From: a virus
Length of the DNA stretch: 29,897 bases
Reading direction: 5' to 3' (one strand)
UHGV virus genome: UHGV-1792943
The position numbers and the translations under genes are program-made. The notes under the pieces are model-generated. The model worked only from the letters and a program-made list of their open reading frames with translations, did no database searches and was not told the origin of the DNA. This document shows, piece after piece, positions 2,182-28,602 of this stretch (within the stretch, counting starts at the first letter, position 1; each line of letters starts with the position of its first letter).

Positions 2182-4103
2182 TAAAGAAACCTATTCGAAT
2201 AAATATCCAGTCCACTTTTGCAGATACGCTCACTGGATATACGCCTAATCGTTGGGTGGCGGAAGATATCACCGAGGATGATTTACTTATCGAGCCTGCG
2301 ACGCTGGAAGATATCGAGCTGGCCTATATGGGCAACGAAATTTTGGTAACTACCAATGAGGCAATGTTCGAAGCTTTAACCACAACAAAATTGCGGTTAG
2401 CGCAAACAATGCGAGCATTTGTCCGGGCGCTTAATCGCGGCCTGAATGGCACTGACATTGCTGCGGGTACGGATGAGGCAGGGGAATATGAAGACGGACG
2501 TAATAGTATCGGTGGGGCAATCATTGGGCGCGTGCGCCGGGTTGCTAATATCCCTGTTGTAACAGCACAAATACCTCTAACCGATGGACAAACGACAAGC
2601 ATAATTTTCCATTCTCCAACCGCAGACGGCACAAGAATTAAAGGGGATGACGAGCTGGTTGCGTTTCAGTTTCTTCTTAACAAAAGAAACGTTACGCATG
2701 TTGTTGCGCCAATCGGTGGGCGTGATGTATCTCTGAGCCAGGTGTGTCAGGCGCTTTCTAACCTCATTGAGCGTAACAGTGCAAAATTCAAAAAAGCAAA
2801 GGAGCGCCAGGACAAAATGAAGGCTGATATTGAGGGGTATCTCAATGAAGCCGACAAGCTGGCAGAAGAACGTTCTGTGCTGATTGAGCAGGTTGAAGAC
2901 GCACAGCGGGGGCTGGCAGAGAAACGCTCAACACTCAATGATATGCAGAATAAATTAGACGCACAAAAAGCCCTTAACGCGGAATTGCAGGCTAAGCGCG
3001 ATAATTTATTGTCAGCTAAGAGCCAAGGAACTAAAGAGCGTGCCTTCAATGATCAACTGCGACACATAAAACATAATCTTGCTACAGAAGGCCAAACAAC
3101 GCTGGATAATGGTGCTGTAGTTAAGTATGTCACGTCAGGCAGTGATAGCTTTGTCACGATTGAGGCACCAGAAGGCAATTTCAGTATTGATGTCAGTGCT
3201 GTTAAAGGTGGGAGTTCAGCGGACGCTGCAACCAAATTACTTAAAGCCTATCGTGAACATAATGCTGATCAATACAAAGTGGATGTGTTGCCGGGCCAGC
3301 CTGAGCCAACTGATCAGCCGCAGCCTGAACAGGAGCCACAACCAGCATCACATCCTGATCCCCTGGAGGTTGGTAAATATCGCTATGCGCTACAATCTCG
3401 CCCGGCGGGTGTTGGTGCGGTTCCTGAAGGAAATAAAGCTGTACTTGACCGTCCTGATCAGGCTGATCCGTATTACGAATATGCTCGTCACGGAATCATT
3501 ACGTATGACCGCAAACTGACAGACGAAGAAGTCAGTCAGTACGAATTACGCTATCTGCCTGATGACGATGAACTGAGAGGGATGGCGAACGAGCTGGTTG
3601 CGTCCAGCATGGTAAAACATATTGATGGCTATGTAGATCTGTTTGGAAGTGACCTGAAAACATTCAAGGCGCAAGTTAAAATTCTTTTCCGCAAAGCGTT
3701 CCCGAACGTGGCATATCCACTTGGTGATGGGGAGAACCTTTTCATTATGGACGTGTATAACGCCCTTCAAAATCATTCAAGCGAAGTAAAAACAGATCCT
3801 GTAGTTGAGCCAGAATCGCAACCTGCACCAGCACCAGAACAGGAGCCGGAGCCAGAAGAAGCGGGTGAATCAGCAAGCGAAGCTGACCAGGAAGCAGATA
3901 AAGCGCTTGAGTACCTGAAATCCGTTCCGGAGCAGTTCACATCCCGCGATCTGACGGTCATAAGTGCTGAACTTGATCATGTGCAGGAAGCTGCAAACGC
4001 TCTTATCAGTGCTGGTCGATATGACGAGAACGAAGCAACTGTAGGTGCAGCCGTTGACTACCTGATCAATATTCTGGCTGAAATTCAGCAGGGAGGTGCT
4101 TAA
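2178..4103 (+). CDS. large virion-associated protein, DarA-like by size and operon position (641 aa)
   Basis: ATGA overlap with the upstream gene; SD GGAGGAAG; two Pro/Glu-rich linkers (PEPTDQPQPEQEPQP and PESQPAPAPEQEPEPEE). Assignment to DarA is by analogy to the P1 darA operon, not by alignment. Confidence 0.5.
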   Translation: MIKKPIRINIQSTFADTLTGYTPNRWVAEDITEDDLLIEPATLEDIELAYMGNEILVTTNEAMFEALTTTKLRLAQTMRAFVRALNRGLNGTDIAAGTDEAGEYEDGRNSIGGAIIGRVRRVANIPVVTAQIPLTDGQTTSIIFHSPTADGTRIKGDDELVAFQFLLNKRNVTHVVAPIGGRDVSLSQVCQALSNLIERNSAKFKKAKERQDKMKADIEGYLNEADKLAEERSVLIEQVEDAQRGLAEKRSTLNDMQNKLDAQKALNAELQAKRDNLLSAKSQGTKERAFNDQLRHIKHNLATEGQTTLDNGAVVKYVTSGSDSFVTIEAPEGNFSIDVSAVKGGSSADAATKLLKAYREHNADQYKVDVLPGQPEPTDQPQPEQEPQPASHPDPLEVGKYRYALQSRPAGVGAVPEGNKAVLDRPDQADPYYEYARHGIITYDRKLTDEEVSQYELRYLPDDDELRGMANELVASSMVKHIDGYVDLFGSDLKTFKAQVKILFRKAFPNVAYPLGDGENLFIMDVYNALQNHSSEVKTDPVVEPESQPAPAPEQEPEPEEAGESASEADQEADKALEYLKSVPEQFTSRDLTVISAELDHVQEAANALISAGRYDENEATVGAAVDYLINILAEIQQGGA

Positions 4104-4564: not shown

Positions 4565-7500
4565 TTGAACAAGTCAGTTACTTCCGCGCTATCCGAAGCA
4601 GCAGACATTAACAGTGTTATTGCGCTGGTTTCTTCATTAGAGAGGCGAGAAACACGCCAGGGGCGCAGTAGTTACGTAGTCACCAGTAAAGGGGCAGAGG
4701 TAAAGACGGCTTTTAAGGTCGTTGATGCCAGCAGTCTGATCATTTCGAACAACCTTGACGGTACGATTAATCCGGCCTTCCCGGAAGAACTCCAGCCACG
4801 TGACCGTACACGGCTATCCAGCAAACTCCAGGTTAACCGTATTGCCTCCAATTTACGCCCGGCACAATTAACGGATTCCGGCATGAGCAGCCACGGAGCG
4901 CCGATAGTTGGTCCGGACAACGTTGTTGAATCCGGCAACGGAAGGAGCATGGGTATCTGGCGTGCCTATGAGCAAGGGCAGGCGGATGAATATCGCCAGT
5001 ACCTGATCGATCATGCAAAAGAGTTTGGTCTGAATCCTGACGACATTTCACAAATGTCTATGCCCGTATTGGTGCGCGAAAGACTCACTGATGTTGATCG
5101 TGCGCAGTTCGCCCGCGATTCAAACATCAGCGATCTGCAAGAGATGGCTGCAAGTGAAAAAGCGTATGCGGATGCGCAATTTCTCACTGAGAGCGTCATG
5201 GCGCTATTTAATCCTTCAGATGATGGGAATCTACTGGCGCGGTCCAATGATGCGTTTATTCGTGCGTTTTTGCGCGAAATAGGTGATACGGCGACGGCAG
5301 GTTTGCTTACAGCCGATGGGCGTCCAACGAAACAACTTATCGACCGCATCCAGAATGCAATTTTTGCCAAAGCGTACAAGGATGAAAGGCTTGTTCGGTT
5401 GGTGGCGGAAGAGCCAGATCCGGAAATGCGTAACATCCTTACCGCATTAAATACGGCAGCCAGCGATTTTGCGCAAATGCAGTCGCTTTCAGGTGATGTT
5501 CACCATGACACGGTAACCGGACTGGTAGACGGTATAGAGCAATTGAATGGTCTGGATAAACAGGCTATTGCCGCGCTACAGGAAGCAATTAACCTTGTTC
5601 GTGAAGCAAAAGATAACGGTCAGGCAGTAGAAGAGGTGATCGCACAGCGTGGATTGTTTGGAGATAGCACTCCGGAAGCAGAAGCGCTTGCTCTGTTTAT
5701 TGTTGCCAACAACCGAAGCGCTAAGCGAATGGGGGCAGCTTTCAAGAAACTGGCGCAAAAAATTAACGATGAACTTATTCACCAGCAACAAGCGTTAGGC
5801 GATATGTTCGGCGGCGGAGATGTCGATCTGCGTAGCATTTTATCTGCCGTTTCTGATGAAATTGAGGCTGAGTATGGCGAAGGTAAAGGGCTTAATTTCG
5901 CCATGTTCGAATCAGTTTCGGGAGATGTCGAACCATACATTTCAAAGCTAATTGCTGATGCGACCAGCGTGGAGGACTTGATCCGAATCGTGAAGGCGTC
6001 AGAAAAAATTAAGGAGTCCGCAAAAAAAATAAAGCGCAATGTATTTTTGGAACTTGGTTTTTATATTCGCAATGTCACCGTTAATGAGATTAAGGCGTGG
6101 GCTAAACGTTATGGATACAGCAACGCTGTGTTAACAACGATGTTATTGTCTTATCAACGCAGCAATTTTTATGCTAACGCACTGCGTGACGCGATTGAAA
6201 AAGGAGATGAAGCTCCTTCACTCGCAGATGAAAGAAATATTGATTGTGACATTGAAACGTTTTGCAATATGTCAGAAGAAGGCGTGCCCGCTGAACAATT
6301 TATACGTGTTTTACATAATGCAGCAAAACATATTCCTGATGACTTTAGCATTGATGAATTGCGCAATGGTTGTCTTGTTTGGTTAGGTAACTATTTAAAA
6401 TCTCCAGCGTCTATTGCAGAGAAAACAGCTTTAAGATTTAGAAAGGAAATGAATAAAGCTGGAAGCGCAGAAGAGATGGTGCGCATAATCCAAAATACTT
6501 TGAAGTTATTCAAAAAGAGCTTGCATAATATCAACGATATTATGGCGGCTGGTAGGAAAATAACAGCCAGCGTCGGAGTTAGCTCCGAACTAACGGCAGA
6601 GGAGATCGCTGATGCGTATATTGAGACACTTGTCAGGCTTAAGGAGATAGTGGAATTAGCAGAGCATTCCTCATATTACGGAATCAAGGAGCGCGTTGAC
6701 TTTACTATAGAACAAATCAATAAAGTTAGGTCAAATAAGGAAAAACTCACTGACTACCTTGCTGAGGTTTTGCACCAGAATGATCATGGGATTGGATATG
6801 ATCTGAAAAAAATGCTTGTTTTTAATCTGGACATACCGGAAGACTTGCAAGCAGAATTATATGAAATAGCTTCATTAACACGTGGACAAAAAGCCTATCC
6901 TAATGCGCTTGAAAATGTAGTACATAAAAAAGTCAGAGCCGCATTTGACATGATTCTTGAATCGTCAAATGTGTCACATGACCAGTCTAAGGAATGGAGT
7001 CGTGGGATTGCTATTTCTGATGAAGCAGAGCAGTTAAGTGGTCACGATAATGAAACTTTCTCCCGTAAAGCATACAGTATTCGCGAGACAATTGAAAAAG
7101 CCTATATTATTTCAGGAGGGACTTTATCTACATTAAAAAATATTAACCACAAGAACAATGTTCGTGCTTTTGCAAGTCGAAATGGGAATATAACAATTGA
7201 TGCTAATAGTGATCATGAGCGTGTATTATGGCATGAAATAGGTCACCATATAGAACATTCAAATCCCCATCTATTGGAGAGGGCCAAAGCCTTCATTAAA
7301 TCAAAAACTAACGGTAAAGTTTCTTATCATAATATTGGTAGCCGTGGCAGTGCTGAGTATTTGGTGCGAACCGACCTAAGTCATGGATATATGTCTAAAA
7401 TTTATATGGAAAATACGGTAAGTTCTGTCAGCGGCAGATTTATATCAAAGCCACCTGCATTAAGCAATTGCAGGGCGACTGAGATTTTTTCTATGGCCTT

Positions 7501-12698: not shown

Positions 12699-12839
12699 TG
12701 TTCAGGCTTATATTCATGCCGTCGTAGCAAATTCTGCGACCGGGTTTAGCAGCCTGAATGTTAGTGCGGACAACCGCAGATATCCGATATTGCGGTATTT
12801 TTGTGTCCGTAAAACCGCGTTACGCCCAAATTATGGTGG

Positions 12840-12912
12840 GGCGTGATGGGGAGGCTTCGGCCTGCTGGTTTCACTAACGCCAGTCTGCTAACCCCGTCAC
12901 GTCCTGCCACCT
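12840..12912 (+). ncRNA. c4-like antisense regulatory RNA (boundaries approximate)
   Basis: Loops CACTAAC (12872-12878) and CTGCTAAC (12885-12892) are antiparallel complements of GTTTAGCAG and GTTAGTG. Those targets occur at 12746-12768 and again at 12913-12950, where GTTAGTG overlaps the SD of the downstream ORF. A UUCG tetraloop hairpin is present. Confidence 0.5.
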
Positions 12913-12961
12913 GTTTAGCAGCGGGTAGCAGGTTGTTAAACCTGTTAGTGAGGCCGTAACT

Positions 12962-24245: not shown

Positions 24246-25454
24246 ATGAGTCAGCAAGTAGAATCATCAAGCCTGGAGATCATCTCAACCGCAATTGAAA
24301 CGCTGCGGACACAAATCGCGCTTATACAGAAACGAAATCCGGGCGATGACCTGTCAAAGCGACTGCATGAGAGCGTCATTGCCACTACAGATAACCTGGT
24401 GGCGGAAATCAACCAGCTCCTTGATGATGGGGCAGTTGATTACAATAAGCTGGTGGATCAGTTTGAGGAATATCAGCAAGCCGTTAATGATGGCTTGATC
24501 CGTTTTTCTCAAGTCACTGGTGTATCAGCGACAGTTGAAAGCCTGGGGGATGCAGTTAATCAATTTGCCGCGAATATGCGTAATGAGATCGGCAATCTGG
24601 AGGCGCGTCTTGAGCAGGCAAATACACTGCGCAAATCTGCTGAAGTCGATTTGAGTCGTTACAAAAAAGACTATCCGCCAAGCCTGACAAAACGACTGGA
24701 TGTTGCGGAGAAAGATAACCGCACGCTGAAAAGAGAGCGTCGGGAACTAAAAGAGCGTTTAACCAAGCTAAATCAGCAATGCGTTGAGTATCAAGGCGAA
24801 CTCGTCACACTGCGTAAAAAGTTAGCAGCGGCGCAGAGCATTATTGAAACATTGAAACGAGAGTGCTCAGAGCTTGGTCATGATCTGAATCGCGCCTGTG
24901 GCATGGGGCAAAGGCCAGAGACATTCCCGCTAATGTATGACGGAAGAGAAGCTATTGCCTATATCCATGAGTTTCCGCATGGTCTGGTCGCGGAGACTGG
25001 GCAACGTGGCGAAGCGTTGCTGACGGCAAATTACCATCAGCAAATCAGAACCAGCCGCCTGCTGACGATGGATGTGATCCCGTCAGTATGGGGAACGCCG
25101 CTTTACTACCGAATTCCTGGCTTCGAAACTGACTGGAATACCGACATAGACGAATGTCTGGCAGATAAAATTATGGCGTACCTTGAAACGGATTTTCCAC
25201 GCTTGCATCGCCGGATTATGGACTCTAAGGATGCACCGATCGACGAATTGAAAATGCGTCCAGAGACGTTGGAGGCAATCAAGCAGACTGAGTTTGATAC
25301 AGTGTTCAGTGTGGCCTGCATTCCAAGCAGCTTTCATGAAAGCATTCCGTTCATGCAGGGCGATCGCCGTCAGGAAATAATTGATGCTTGCCGGGTATGG
25401 GCGAACGAGTGGGATAAGAAGAACGGTGGAGTTGAAAATCTTTACGGGAAATAA
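24246..25454 (+). CDS. hypothetical protein with N-terminal coiled coil (402 aa)
   Basis: Long ORF bracketed by a terminator and operator-like sites on both sides. Confidence 0.6.
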   Translation: MSQQVESSSLEIISTAIETLRTQIALIQKRNPGDDLSKRLHESVIATTDNLVAEINQLLDDGAVDYNKLVDQFEEYQQAVNDGLIRFSQVTGVSATVESLGDAVNQFAANMRNEIGNLEARLEQANTLRKSAEVDLSRYKKDYPPSLTKRLDVAEKDNRTLKRERRELKERLTKLNQQCVEYQGELVTLRKKLAAAQSIIETLKRECSELGHDLNRACGMGQRPETFPLMYDGREAIAYIHEFPHGLVAETGQRGEALLTANYHQQIRTSRLLTMDVIPSVWGTPLYYRIPGFETDWNTDIDECLADKIMAYLETDFPRLHRRIMDSKDAPIDELKMRPETLEAIKQTEFDTVFSVACIPSSFHESIPFMQGDRRQEIIDACRVWANEWDKKNGGVENLYGK

Positions 25455-25456
25455 TG

Positions 25457-25485
25457 TGTTAGAAAATTAAAATTGTTTTTCTAAC
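25457..25485. promoter_or_regulatory. operator-like perfect inverted repeat (TGTTAGAAAA, 9 nt, TTTTCTAACA)
   Basis: Read directly; the best palindromic copy of the motif family. Confidence 0.5.
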
Positions 25486-25607
25486 ATATTGATTATGTAG
25501 TTAACTTAACATAGAATTTTTCGTGCTGGTGGGGAGCTTCCCATGTCGCTTGCGGGTTTGATAGTCACTTCATTGTCTTTCCCCACCAGCATCAAACAAT
25601 TTTAAGT

Positions 25608-25617
25608 GTTAGAAAGT
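25608..25617. promoter_or_regulatory. operator-like site (TGTTAGAAAG)
   Basis: Member of the same family. Confidence 0.35.
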
Positions 25618-25827
25618 AAATTTTAAGGTAAGGGAAAGCTCCGGCACCGTGCAAATACATGCCCGGCAGGTTTAGTGCGTAAAGTGGTTTCAGCGAGAGC
25701 ATTTTACGGAGTAAACGACAGTGACTTGAGCCACGGAAGGTCTTTTTATGGTGTTCATTGATGATGATCTGGCAGTGAGTATGTTAAGTGGGCCAGGCTG
25801 CATCGGGTCATCATCAGTGCACATCCT

Positions 25828-25906
25828 CAACGTTAAGGAGGCGCAGAGTTGGGTTTTCCTCTTATTTTGCTGACTCTGAGTCTCCTTAACGTTGCGGTAA
25901 TGCACC
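25828..25906 (+). repeat. hairpin family member H1 (arms CAACGTTAAGGAG / CTCCTTAACGTTG, tail GCGGTAATGCACC)
   Basis: Inverted arms with the conserved 3' tail shared with H3-H6. Confidence 0.5.
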
Positions 25907-26313
25907 TATGCGGATGTGGCCTTGCATTGTGTCTTGAAAGAATGGGGTAAGGCCGGGGATATTCCCAGGGGGAGGCACCCCCGCTGCAACGAACAGCCAT
26001 AGACGGCAGTCGAGTGATGAAAACGTGAAAAGACTTTAAACCTCGTTACGGCTGGCGTGGCAAACGCGACAACCGGGATAGGACGGTGACGGGCGGAGAG
26101 AGAGCCGCTTCAAGATAAAAGCCGACTATGGATTCCTTTCTGCGGGCCTTTGAAAGTGAATCTTGCTCAGGCAGTCGGCTTTTATGTTGATACGTAGCGA
26201 TAACCGCGACAGGCGCGGCGGTAAGTATGGCGGGGTTATTCCTTCCCCGTTGAGGACACCGAGTTGCCAGGTTGACCATACGCCTAAGTGGCAATACCGC
26301 GAGTGGGATATTT

Positions 26314-26339
26314 GCCCACCTTCGGGTGGGTGTTTTTTC
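26314..26339 (+). terminator. rho-independent terminator
   Basis: cccacc-ttcg-ggtggg followed by TGTTTTTTC. Confidence 0.75.
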
Positions 26340-26522
26340 AGTGTTTTCGTCATGGTTAGCGACTTTGCGGCGGTTTAGAACCCGACCATTAAAGTAAATG
26401 CAAACGATGATCTGATGATGGTAGCGGCCTAAGAAGCCTGACGCCACGGGGTATGAGTCGTCCCCCGTCAAAAAATCGACCGCAGAGTGTCCCCGTCTGT
26501 GTATTAGGGAACGGGGAGGCAT

Positions 26523-26599
26523 AACAGGCAAGGGCGCTGGTGTGATTAACCAGATGAATGAGAAGGGTCAGGTCTTTCTGGTCAGCGCCCTTACCTGTT
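26523..26599 (+). repeat. hairpin family member H2 (arms AACAGGCAAGGGCGCTG / CAGCGCCCTTACCTGTT)
   Basis: 17-bp near-perfect stem; arm sequence related to H3. Confidence 0.45.
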
Positions 26600-26799
26600 A
26601 CGTCCCTCCCGCGTAACAGCCATTGGTTAATGGCTTTCTGGGATAATGTCTTGTAACGGGTATATCCCGTCATGCTGAAGGCGCTAATCACGCTGGAAGC
26701 CAGGGTTATGCATCCCCTGTTACCGAATTGCAGCCAGGGCGCGGTGCGCCGAAAAGCATACGGAGGTGGAAGCCCTCGCCGGAGACGTACCCGGCAAGT

Positions 26800-26876
26800 G
26801 ATGGTGTAGCTCAGTAGGATAGAGCAGCAGCCTTCTAAGCTGTCGGTCGGTGGTTCGAATCCACCCACCATCGCCA
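26800..26876 (+). tRNA. tRNA-Arg (anticodon TCT)
   Basis: Full cloverleaf folded by hand: acceptor gatggtg / caccatc, anticodon loop cttctaa, T-loop ttcgaat, encoded CCA. Confidence 0.8.
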
Positions 26877-26882
26877 ATTTAG

Positions 26883-26968
26883 GGGAGTTAGTCCGTAGGG
26901 GTAGCGGGGTAGACTGTAAATCTACTGTCATTGCGACTCGGATGGTTCGACTCCATCACTCCCCACCA
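26883..26968 (+). tRNA. tRNA-Tyr-like (anticodon GTA), long variable arm, slightly irregular D-arm
   Basis: Acceptor ggggagt / actcccc, anticodon stem gtaga / tctac with loop ctgtaaa, 15-nt variable arm, T-loop ttcgact, CCA. Confidence 0.5.
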
Positions 26969-26972
26969 AATT

Positions 26973-27048
26973 GCCGGTTTAGCTCAGTTGGTAGAGCGCC
27001 TGCCTTGTAAGCAGGATGTCAGCGGTTCGAGTCCGTTAACCGGCACCA
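26973..27048 (+). tRNA. tRNA-Thr (anticodon TGT)
   Basis: Acceptor gccggtt / aaccggc, anticodon loop cttgtaa, T-loop ttcgagt, CCA. Confidence 0.8.
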
Positions 27049-27050
27049 AC

Positions 27051-27146
27051 ACAACAGGTAAGGGTATTTTGCGACGTCGGAGATCGCCGAGCTTGGCAGA
27101 GGGTTCGAATCCCTACGAAGTACCCTTACCGTTGTGATGAATGCAC
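27051..27146 (+). repeat. hairpin family member H3, with an internal T-arm-like minihelix
   Basis: Arms ACAACAGGTAAGGGTA / TACCCTTACCGTTGTG, tail ATGAATGCAC; begins 3 nt after tRNA-Thr. Confidence 0.55.
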
Positions 27147-27315
27147 AGGCTGATGTGCCGCAACTACAGTAGTGCGCGCTTTGCGGGGCTTGCTACAACC
27201 CTGTGTCGGAATTCAGCACCGACCATCACAGTTTGATTCTCTGGCATGAGCATAACGCTGAAATAAGTCCAGTCTGGTGCGGTCTGATCACCCGCCGTTA
27301 GCTCCACGATACGGA

Positions 27316-27416
27316 GCGCACAACAGGTAAGAGTATTTGTAGAGTTCGACTCTCTACCGTGGGCTTTTTCCCGCGATGCGAGCCATAAATGCTCTTTCCG
27401 TTGTGGTGAATGCGCG
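27316..27416 (+). repeat. hairpin family member H4, with an internal perfect T-arm-like hairpin (gtagag-ttcgact-ctctac)
   Basis: Arms GCGCACAACAGGTAAGAGTATTTG / AAATGCTCTTTCCGTTGTGG, tail TGAATGCGCG. Confidence 0.55.
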
Positions 27417-27558
27417 TTGCTAGCGCGCAAGTCCGCCCTATGGCAACGAGGCGGCGTAGTAAATATCGATGCCTCAGTCATCAAGCGCACTGACCGGCCT
27501 TATGGGCTATGAAAAAAAGAGGCGCAGTCGGAGTTCAGCACCGACCATCACAATCACT

Positions 27559-27645
27559 GGAGAGTAGGGAGCATGGTGCTCAAGCGGTCTTGAAAACCGT
27601 CCCATTGCGCAAGCGATGATGGTTCGATTCCATTACTCTCCGCCA
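27559..27645 (+). tRNA. tRNA-Ser-like (anticodon TGA), type II with long variable arm
   Basis: Acceptor ggagagt / actctcc, anticodon stem gcggt / accgt with loop cttgaaa, T-loop ttcgatt, CCA. The D-arm is not perfectly canonical. Confidence 0.45.
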
Positions 27646-27768
27646 GCGCAACGTTAAGAGTATTTGGCTAATTAAGCGAATGCCGGAAGCAGAACCGGAT
27701 CACCAAATGCGTACAGGCGTCATCGCCGCCCAGTCAGCCAAATGCTCTTACCATTGCGGTGAATGCGG
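27646..27768 (+). repeat. hairpin family member H5
   Basis: Arms GCGCAACGTTAAGAGTATTTGGC / GCCAAATGCTCTTACCATTGCGG, tail TGAATGCGGC; starts at the base after the tRNA-Ser-like CCA. Confidence 0.55.
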
Positions 27769-27936
27769 CTAAGCGCACGCGGAACAGTTAAAACAGTAAA
27801 GGTGGTCTTTTTACTGGCGTAACGAGAATCCATAAGTGATCCGGCGTTAATTGTTAACTGGTTAACGTCACCGGGAGGCACCCGGCACCGCAACCTAACA
27901 GCAATGGCGTTTTGTCTTAAAAGGTGGCTGCAAGTG

Positions 27937-28065
27937 ATGGATTTTTGGGCGTTTGCCGATAAAAACCCGGAGTGGACATTATTGTTTCTGCTGGTGGTTG
28001 CATACGGGGTAGAGCAAGCGGCAAAAGCCTTACGCGGTTCTGGCAAAAAGCGTAAGCGTAATTAA
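27937..28065 (+). CDS. 42-aa small membrane peptide (MDFWAFADKNPEWTLLFLLVVAYGVEQAAKALRGSGKKRKRN)
   Basis: SD AAGGTGG 8 nt upstream of the ATG; one hydrophobic helix and a basic tail; absent from the ORF track because it is under 60 aa. Confidence 0.35.
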   Translation: MDFWAFADKNPEWTLLFLLVVAYGVEQAAKALRGSGKKRKRN

Positions 28066-28074
28066 CAGTAATCT

Positions 28075-28150
28075 GGCCCTTTAGCTCAGTGGTTAGAGCG
28101 GGCGACTCATAATCGCACGGTCACCGGTTCAAGTCCGGTAGGGGCCACCA
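28075..28150 (+). tRNA. tRNA-Ile2 (anticodon CAT, lysidine type)
   Basis: Near-identical to the enterobacterial ileX-type tRNA as recalled: acceptor ggccctt / aggggcc, anticodon loop ctcataa, T-loop ttcaagt, CCA. Confidence 0.8.
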
Positions 28151-28329
28151 CATTTGGTTGTAACACGGCGTATGGCACATGCGTCGTTAGCGGTCTGGTG
28201 TAGCTGTTAGGTACCTTTTACTAACACTGCATGGGCACACCAGGTAGCCGGAATGTGCAAGCCCCGTTCATAGCGTCGGACTGCGGATTCACCATCCTGG
28301 CGATTCGGTGTGACAGCCGGAAGAGCACG

Positions 28330-28391
28330 GCGTACAACAGGAAAAGGCGTTTAATTAGCGTGAGCGCCGTTTCCGTTGTGGTAATTGCGGC
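28330..28391 (+). repeat. hairpin family member H6 (short-loop version)
   Basis: Arms ACAACAGGAAAAGGCG / CGCCGTTTCCGTTGTGG, tail TAATTGCGGC. Confidence 0.5.
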
Positions 28392-28602
28392 TATGCGCTC
28401 GTAACGAAGCCATTTTCATTCACTACGTTCTGATAAGGGTCGTCCCGGGGCGTGGCTACCCGGGCAGGGGGGGGCCCCCCCGCCACAACTCCTTTCAATT
28501 CATCATATAGCCGCTCAGGCTGTAACCCTTAATTAATACGAAGTTACGACGTCACTACCGGTTCAGCCGGGGGATAGTCGCGCGTGTAAAAAAGGAGACG
28601 TT

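Follow-up and report, generated by a model that had tools for sequence, protein, structure and literature searches.

The EAR element of the Bacillus eps operons is a structured, pseudoknotted RNA that acts in cis and reduces termination without overlapping the terminator. In the genome record of phage P1 (NC_005856), a misc_feature termed the 'dicF-like region' (68791-68892) lies after the promoter Pban and the operator Op72 and before the genes for two transfer RNAs (tRNAs), tRNA-Asn and tRNA-Thr. At the terminator of DicF in Escherichia coli K-12, terminated and read-through transcripts have both been reported (PMC5069750). Here, we report a computational analysis of the virus genome UHGV-1792943 (29,897 nucleotides (nt), one strand read 5' to 3'; hereafter the window), in which an earlier note, made from the letters of the sequence, had placed a candidate structured small RNA (sRNA) gene ending at a strong terminator at 26100-26340. 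We conclude with good confidence that this interval is the strand-specific non-coding leader RNA of a P1/D6-type phage-plasmid, consisting of three modules (module A, a core domain and a terminator; Table 1) and heading an untranslated tRNA array as the counterpart of the leader of the P1 ban operon.

The core domain, ~100-120 nt in size, is present in P1, P7, their relatives and lambdoid phages and is missing from D6 and most D6-type plasmids. It shares ~90% identity with the P1 'dicF-like region' and with the stretch that precedes DicF in lambdoid phages; window 26201-26400 aligned to P1 68736-68944 with 82% identity, reaching about 90% or more over the core and terminator. In phage Tritos the homologue (2001-2120) stands directly before DicF (2121-2173), and in Qin of K-12 it lies unannotated between ydfC and dicF, at about 1649248-1649368. 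Of 5426 complete E. coli genomes, 4002 (74%) contain the core, at 6993 chromosomal and 158 plasmid places and up to 7 times per genome, with no annotated feature under it among the E. coli matches listed. Few unannotated structured RNA elements of E. coli are as common as the core, which both adjoins DicF, one of the first bacterial sRNAs to be described, and heads the ban/tRNA operon of the model phage P1. A pattern scan of viral contigs yielded 120 core loci. A 19-base pattern scan of genome contigs returned almost exclusively chance matches, and of these the covariance model described below upheld only the ones in Escherichia albertii and E. ruysiae. Hosts have been confirmed among Escherichia species, Shigella and Salmonella, and one phage is recorded as an Actinobacillus phage.

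DicF itself gave no match at E values up to 10 in 25300-28600, nor at E values up to 0.01 in the P1 locus; as a control, the same search scores DicF (RF00039, gathering score 48 bits) at 72.5 bits in Tritos. Both flanks of the lambdoid DicF slot are present in the window (26190-26309 and 27755-27892), and the space between them is taken up by a 16-nt linker, a terminator other than that of DicF, a conserved block and the tRNA genes. The P1 label 'dicF-like' reflects homology of the flanks of DicF and not DicF. An Rfam scan, suggested by the earlier note as a check, assigned the core to no family in the window, P1 or Tritos. The similarity was already noticed when P1 was annotated, yet the element differs from DicF, lies outside Rfam and carries no annotation in RefSeq genomes; the literature that we searched, which left out the P1 genome paper and the 1994 paper on dicF homologues, held no description of the fold or function of the core. 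ARAGORN found no tRNA-like or transfer-messenger RNA (tmRNA)-like element other than the five tRNAs at 26800-28150, a tmRNA_permuted match at 26290-26432 is sub-threshold (24.1 bits against a gathering score of 47), and a resemblance to 5S ribosomal RNA (rRNA) seen by eye is not significant (p = 0.36-0.54).

The covariance model (R1) of the core was built from 19 diverse sequences, 100 matches were aligned to it, and covariation was evaluated on 61 distinct sequences. RNAalifold on a plain MAFFT alignment had given a poor structure because helix H1 differs in length, and that alignment was replaced by a register-neutral and then by a model-based one. Besides the helices and pseudoknot listed in Table 1, the fold has a closing stem, P0, which occurs only in the lambdoids and in a Shigella plasmid and is unformed in the window and in P1, leaving four helices here. 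The lambdoid P0 (GTTGTGGC/GCCACAAC) covaries, with CG to UA changes. In this set of 61, pairing holds in 96.0% of cells and double-sided changes occur in 15 of 36 pairs, against 4.0±1.4 in column shuffles; none of 500 shuffles reached any of five measures, and pairing fell to 31-56% when the partner columns were slid by 1-3. The alignment was fitted to the covariance model and is thus biased toward structure, and the register-neutral alignment gives the same compensatory changes.

Most of the variation lies in one arm, H1, where it is compensatory (CGGGG/CCCCG, CUGGG/CCCAG, CUGGGG/CUCCAG, CAGGUG/CACCUG and CAGGGG/CUCCUG). One U-A pair of the pseudoknot is replaced by C-G in the P1 type and by U-G in two further lineages, and the Shigella copy extends the closing stem inward by 4 new base pairs (TGTGGTTAT/ATAACCACA) and carries G-C for U-A in H2. 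The wobbles in covarying pairs are G.U on the + strand. Set against P1 and the lambdoids, the core of the window combines an H1 of lambdoid type with an H2 of P1 type. The GC hairpins pointed out in the earlier note are present at the positions of H0 (CCGCG/CGCGG, 26204-26218) and H1 (CGGGG/CCCCG, 26231-26249). In the lambdoids (at 2010-2030 of one such locus, for example) the loop and stem of H0 also hold a mini open reading frame (ORF), AUG GCG CGG CGG UAA (Met-Ala-Arg-Arg-stop), with two rare CGG codons; it is probably incidental, since neither the P1 type nor this window has the AUG.

The invariant H2 loop and the pseudoknot are kept even in the most divergent copy. This constancy, the wide spread of the core in E. 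coli and its presumed expression, in two unrelated phage types, as part of early operons under repressor control would be in keeping with a protein-binding or decoy RNA that sequesters a host or phage protein, such as a nuclease or defence sensor, whatever genes lie next to it. Such a role has no candidate partner, the core shows no similarity to known decoy RNAs, tRNA, tmRNA or 5S rRNA, and the constant presence of a terminator after the core would be left unexplained; we regard it as improbable.

Upstream of the core, the long-range stem seen in the earlier note (AAAAGCCGACT at 26117-26127 and AGTCGGCTTTT at 26173-26183) is present and forms part of the minimum-free-energy fold. A repeat finder extended its arms to 26110-26127 and 26173-26190 (18 nt, 94% complementary, 45 nt between them). 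It belongs to module A, which was found in 117 plasmid records and also in D6. RNAalifold on five module A sequences gave 30 pairs, 8 of which changed on both sides yet stayed paired, and its wobbles are without exception G.U on the + strand. Because of these double-sided changes and + strand wobbles, we take module A to be an RNA transcribed from left to right and not a DNA palindrome. The predicted outer helix, at 17-18 base pairs (bp), is possibly long enough to be an RNase III substrate. Conservation in relatives, named beforehand as a check, was borne out in both parts of the interval: the long stem and inner hairpin keep their pairing through the 8 compensatory changes in the five relatives, and the core helices covary in the 61 sequences.

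In P1 there is no module A, and Pban and the C1 operator Op72 occupy that position. In D6 and most D6-type plasmids, module A is followed by ~25 nt and then by the terminator, without the core, and the combination of module A and core occurs in this window and in a few near-identical plasmids. The Shigella dysenteriae plasmid CP026808 (1196-1395 of its locus) carries a divergent module A and a divergent core and has no equivalent of window 25990-26110; this plasmid is the most informative relative for covariation. In an alignment of P1, D6, three further plasmids and lambdoid phages, module A, core and terminator are inherited independently of one another.

The earlier note had judged an RNA gene more plausible than a protein gene at 26100-26340, having noticed that the ORF across it runs through the terminator. 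That ORF is indeed present on the + strand (26163-26378, 71 amino acids (aa), TTG start) and crosses the terminator, and the preference for RNA was upheld. No Pfam family was found for it or for two opposite-strand ORFs. Relatives differ by the presence or absence of 97 nt, by the hypervariable linker and by insertions and deletions in H1, so reading frames over the interval would be destroyed, while the base changes preserve pairs. The ORFs over the interval should not be called genes, and it should be annotated as non-coding RNA. A view without any RNA function would make the interval a passive recombination junction between phage modules, or would have the 71-aa ORF or an opposite-strand ORF encode a protein. 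The mosaic nature of the region, with module A, core and linker inherited independently, speaks for the former, and hypothetical proteins annotated over the homologous stretch in some records speak for the latter. However, a passive junction would not give compensatory changes in five helices and a pseudoknot, nor G.U wobbles on one strand only, and the ORFs belong to no Pfam family and are disrupted by the 97-nt segment and the H1 indels, which makes this view very improbable indeed.

The folding energy of 26100-26345, which the earlier note had also put forward as a check, is only modestly unusual when taken alone (z = -2.33; 3 of 200 shuffles fold as well), and it is the comparative data that decide whether the structure is beyond chance. 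The safe conclusion is that 26110-26338 is a structured, non-coding, + strand RNA and the distal part of the leader of a repressor-controlled tRNA operon (of ban type in P1), with a terminator at its end that looks efficient.

The strong terminator reported in the earlier note was recovered by a terminator scan, with its stem at 26313-26332, a UUCG loop and then TTTTTT at 26333-26338, and it has the make-up of an intrinsic terminator, a G+C-rich hairpin followed at once by a U tract. Stem and U tract are kept in P1, D6, D6-like and Shigella plasmids with few substitutions and a U run of 5-7 nt. Just ahead of the terminator lies the only single-stranded stretch in this part of the interval, and it is not conserved. 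More generally, a hairpin and T run follow the H2 loop motif by 42-99 nt in all of the cores with enough downstream sequence (121/121), and these terminators represent at least 7 classes unrelated in sequence, among them DicF, several further cassettes of DicF type and the P1-type hairpin. As the association between core and terminator is independent of terminator sequence, classical attenuation by alternative pairing is ruled out. In the window its only option would be a 5-bp GUGGG/CCCAC pairing, which is not kept in P1 or Shigella, and the terminators differ among contexts.

Table 1. Features of the leader, the downstream array and the candidate promoter region in the window
Feature	Position	Strand	Description
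Putative bivalent operator	25457-25466 (+), 25477-25486 (-)		Inverted pair of TGTTAGAAAA; third copy at 25607-25616
Candidate promoter	25489-25517	+	Sigma-70-like, TTGATT-17-TAGAAT, 9/12 consensus matches; reads into non-coding region
Module A	26110-26190	+	Y-shaped long hairpin: 17-18 bp outer stem (AAAAGCCGACT/AGTCGGCTTTT) and inner hairpin; specific to D6-type phage-plasmids
Core domain	26190-26309 (about 26195-26305 by alignment)	+	Covariance model R1: 105 bits, E = 1.5e-28; single copy in window
H0	26204-26208/26214-26218	+	Core hairpin
P1a	26219-26222/26258-26261	+	Stem enclosing H1
Pseudoknot	26225-26230/26276-26281	+	GUAUGG (5' of H1) with CCAUAC (H2 loop); covariation
H1	26231-26235/26245-26249	+	Core hairpin
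H2	26262-26269/26289-26296	+	Hairpin with invariant 19-nt loop GGUUGACCAUACGCYURAG
Variable linker	26297-26312	+	Unalignable between window, P1 and Shigella plasmid (18-35 nt); flanks 90-100% identical
Intrinsic terminator	26313-26338	+	8-bp stem (5 G-C), UUCG loop, U6 tract; terminator scan
Block after terminator	26343-26440	+	Identical or nearly so in all six P1/D6-type sequences aligned
tRNA array	26800-28150	+	Arg-TCT, Tyr-GTA, Thr-TGT, Ser-TGA, CAT anticodon; repeated hairpin modules
Segment homologous to the sequence directly after DicF in lambdoids and to P1	27755-27892	+	STnc100, 40.8 bits against gathering score 47

The window represents a D6/P1-type phage-plasmid, as indicated by its C4 RNA, ORF map, tRNAs and identity to D6 and P1-like plasmids. 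Rfam detected the C4 antisense RNA and the a1/b1 target elements at 12708-12760 and 12829-12914 (70 and 53.9 bits), which confirm a P1-type immunity region (immI). The ORF map contains a 2283-aa ORF of darB size and a 402-aa pmgS-like ORF ending at 25454, after which there are ~3.1 kb without long ORFs. Four tRNAs were found in the window by Rfam and five by ARAGORN (26800-28150). The stretch 25455-28600 is 89.5% identical to phage D6 over 76% of its length and matches many non-mobilizable P1-like plasmids of E. coli, Salmonella and Shigella with identities of up to 99%. The leader (25455-26800) is unusually rich in long imperfect hairpins on both sides of 26100-26340, with four more at 25519-25596, 25745-25830, 25812-25910 and 26513-26609 (arms 17-38 nt, loops 23-44 nt).

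The candidate promoter of Table 1 lies ~0.7 kb before the unit of module A and core, ~815 nt from the terminator, and a weaker promoter-like site (25934-25963) is ~370 nt from it. The sigma-70 consensus scan found no convincing promoter-like site adjoining module A or the core and none within 150 nt upstream. None was found between the terminator and the tRNAs of the window, and none is annotated there in P1. The P1 C1 operator consensus is absent from the window. The motif TGTTAGAAAA, allowing up to 1 mismatch, occurs 12 times (11401, 12603, 14712, 17658, 23157, 24212, 25457, 25477, 25607, 28217, 29559 and 29579) against 2.7 expected, a number reached by none of 100 shuffles. Its copies are mostly between ORFs, one of them just upstream of the c4 region, and include two inverted pairs, 25457/25477 and 29559/29579. 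The first pair abuts the promoter-like site right after pmgS, in the position of Op72 at Pban in P1. From its enrichment and placement, TGTTAGAAAA is probably the operator of the C1-type repressor of this phage, and the inverted pair with its promoter may be the counterpart of Op72/Pban in a heteroimmune P1 relative.

Of the structured sRNA gene proposed in the earlier note, the structured RNA stands; a single unit held together by the long-range stem does not. The interval is more likely to be an operon leader, or a processed or terminated product of one, than a free-standing sRNA gene, given that its modules are mosaic, that no convincing promoter is adjacent and that tRNAs come after the terminator. 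As a trans-acting sRNA, the terminated RNA (core, linker and terminator hairpin with its U tract) would regulate host or phage messenger RNAs by pairing with them, a DicF analogue whose scaffold is constant and whose seed varies. Its end, a canonical terminator with U6, is like that of Hfq-type sRNAs, the promoter ~35 nt before the core in P1 would give an expected RNA of ~180 nt, and the hypervariable segment before the terminator in P1-type plasmids and lambdoids (DicF and at least 5 other cassettes) is what diversifying seeds would produce. The window, however, has neither a DicF match nor an adjacent promoter, and its promoterless tRNA genes follow the terminator. Moreover, the conserved part is a compact fold with few free conserved nucleotides and not a single-stranded seed. 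We consider a trans-acting role unlikely, though less so than a decoy.

Downstream of the terminator, the conserved block shares ~87% identity with a non-coding stretch of the virulent Cronobacter phage ESP2949-1 (Drexlerviridae), which lies ~650 nt before terS (from locus position 2501-2557 onward). UGAUGA and CUGA motifs occur in the block, and its fold energy is ordinary (z = -0.4). A phage-specific promoter motif considered in this block, CATTAAAGTAAAT, occurs only once, and the sigma-70 scan is empty there. The first tRNA lies ~490 nt downstream of the core, and the tRNA sets differ between elements (Asn, Thr and Ile-CAT in P1; Asn, Thr and Ser in D6; Tyr, Thr and Met in Ro157c2). The tRNA-Ser of the window falls just below threshold as tRNA-Sec in Rfam (44.6 bits against 47).

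The segment at 27755-27892, the start of which recurs as a partial second copy at about 28378-28410, has sub-threshold STnc100 counterparts in P1 (locus 3852-3971) and, directly after DicF, in Tritos. By homology it marks the 3' side of a 'slot' that is filled by DicF in lambdoids and by tRNAs here. The core and this segment bracket DicF within a span of 318 nt in lambdoids; here 1.7 kb separate the two, and they enclose the terminator, the block and four tRNAs. Long hairpins (CACAACAGGTAAGAGTATTT ... AAATGCTCTTACCGTTGTGGTGAATGCG) recur after tRNA genes at 27050-27145, 27319-27414, 27644-27761 and 28333-28389. Their arms resemble the flanks of the lambdoid unit of core plus sRNA (GTGCTCTCAGCGTTGTGG upstream and ACAAAACAGAGAAGAGCAT after the terminator). 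They may be processing stems, and their TGCTCTT part resembles boxA. Inside one of them, at 27102-27112, a T-arm-like sequence (GGTTCGAATCC) with no detectable tRNA around it looks like a tRNA remnant. After the last tRNA, 28153-28262 (TTTGGTTGTAACACGGCGTATGGCACATGCGTCGTTAGCGGTCTGG ... CCAGGTAGCCGGAATGTGCAAG) is nearly identical to part of the untranslated leader of phage cdtI between the promoter PL and the core (about 3240-3350), so phage-plasmids and lambdoids share several non-coding modules in differing orders.

These arrangements bear on a second role for the core, as a platform for processing or stability: a closed, nuclease-resistant fold that would position RNase E or RNase III cleavage and free cargo RNAs (DicF-type sRNAs or tRNAs), leaving RNA polymerase unaffected. 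The lambdoid core is closed by a covarying stem and ends ~20 nt before the 5' end of DicF, which is reportedly made by RNase E, and a 72-nt form of DicF by RNase III (PMC5069750). The cargo between the core and the STnc100-like flank varies: lambdoids carry variants of DicF there, and P1, D6 and the window each have their own tRNA set. The tRNA array also contains, throughout its length, inverted repeats akin to the flanks of the lambdoid unit. In P1 and the window, on the other hand, the core has no closing stem and neighbours only a 16-28 nt linker and the terminator. The distance to the first tRNA also weighs against such a platform, as does the processing of the same array in D6-type plasmids without a core. 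Overall, a processing platform appears doubtful.

We tentatively favour a core that acts on transcription as a cis-acting leader, by antitermination, with the terminated fraction persisting as a stable RNA; taken by itself, this is a possibility to be held with reserve. In the proposed sequence of events, release of the C1-type repressor would allow transcription from the operator-flanked promoter at 25489-25517 through the leader, and the core would fold co-transcriptionally. A fraction of transcripts would end at the terminator and yield a stable RNA with a 3' hairpin and U6. In the others, the folded core would act in cis on the elongating complex, like a put RNA of HK022 or EAR, so that a useful fraction of polymerases would continue beyond the terminator, cross the long untranslated array and arrive at the tRNA genes (in P1 at ban; in lambdoids at dicB and recombination genes). 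The data show the anatomy, fold and conservation of the leader, the constant presence of a terminator after the core and, in the lambdoid examples examined, the lack of an N-like gene between promoter and terminator; the promoter, the operator, partial termination and antitermination are inferred. The explanation as a whole, joining leader identity with mechanism, is in our view the best available and a reasonable working account, although it falls short of being probable.

Cis-acting antitermination is favoured because the core is always paired with terminators, of any sequence, in operons that need distal expression, and because it holds the nutL/putL position in phages without an N gene. 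In phage cdtI, for example, PL (TTGACA-16-CATAAT) is followed by a 280-nt leader without annotated gene, the core, an sRNA-like terminator and the first gene. Neither an Arg-rich N-like motif nor a relevant Pfam family was found in the ORFs before the core in the handful of loci inspected (YdfA, YdfB and YdfC of Tritos/Qin; a 62-aa ORF of F1055). In P1, the operator mutation bac-1 is by itself enough for constitutive ban expression, which would mean that passage beyond the terminator takes no further phage protein made on induction.

Several observations weigh against antitermination by the core. About 105 of the 117 D6-type plasmid records keep the terminator and tRNA array without a core, which argues that the core is dispensable for downstream expression, unless module A takes over its role. 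No significant similarity was found between the core and the put RNAs (local alignment, p = 0.06 and 0.20, and R1 finds nothing in HK022), and the one hairpin-like motif that it shares with put is broken by a substitution that is compensated in another helix. The spacer of 16-45 nt exceeds the short spacers reported for steric 'tug-of-war' antitermination (preprint 10.64898/2026.06.17.733018). The high identity between P1-type and lambdoid cores could partly be due to recent mosaic exchange and not to constraint, and the proposed promoter and operators consist of consensus matches and motif enrichment.

A bolder form of the cis-acting reading would make the core a new fold of protein-independent antiterminator RNA, a put analogue that forms, with its downstream flank, a portable 'small-RNA expression slot' with swappable cargo in lambdoid prophages and P1-like phage-plasmids. 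We think this unlikely as it stands. If true, the core would let polymerases pass the terminator of each cargo and the long untranslated stretch beyond it, which would explain how the early-left operons of N-less lambdoids, the ban operon of P1 and dicB of K-12 are expressed across strong terminators. Control of read-through by the core would in itself account for early-left expression of N-less prophages across a promoter-proximal terminator, for the balance of DicF and DicB output and for expression of phage-plasmid tRNA arrays. Should the core instead prove to be a processing platform or a decoy, it would still be a new RNA family with a defined fold.

When compared with described systems, the core resembles EAR and the 'tug-of-war' structures (preprint 10.64898/2026.06.17.733018) in being a structured RNA, presumably cis-acting, upstream of terminators inside operons. 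It differs from them in having no sequence or Rfam relationship, and the tug-of-war mechanism is reported to need a very short spacer, in contrast to the 16-45 nt found here. Like the put RNAs of HK022, antiterminators made of RNA alone that suppress termination processively, without protein, through the beta' zinc-binding domain, it lies after an early promoter and before terminators, with no N gene ahead of the terminator in the handful of loci inspected. It is highly structured and of the same size class (~70-120 nt), and it shares the 9-mer GCGCGGCGG with putL. Whereas put consists of two stems and a triplex, the core has five helices and a pseudoknot, and antitermination is suggested for it by analogy. 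Membership in the put family, considered on account of the 9-mer and a UCAGGWUGA-like motif, was rejected: core against putL and putR gave p = 0.06 and 0.20, putL against putR gave p < 0.0005, and R1 misses HK022. The put-like GUC/GAC hairpin is broken in the core by U to C in the P1 type, compensated in H2, and by G to U in the Shigella copy.

The DicF locus (Qin of K-12; RF00039) has the core directly upstream and the homologue of 27755-27892 directly downstream of DicF and, like this locus, belongs to an early, repressor-controlled operon. The DicF RNA, which pairs with ftsZ mRNA and inhibits cell division, is absent here, and in its place are a short unrelated linker, a terminator, the conserved block and ~1.3 kb of tRNA genes. 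In the P1 'dicF-like region', a C1-controlled promoter stands ~35 nt upstream, module A is absent and the linker is unrelated; the window has module A in place of the P1 promoter and operator, and its nearest promoter-like site is ~0.7 kb upstream. In other respects the two loci are homologous and share the same order of core, linker, terminator, invariant block and tRNAs.

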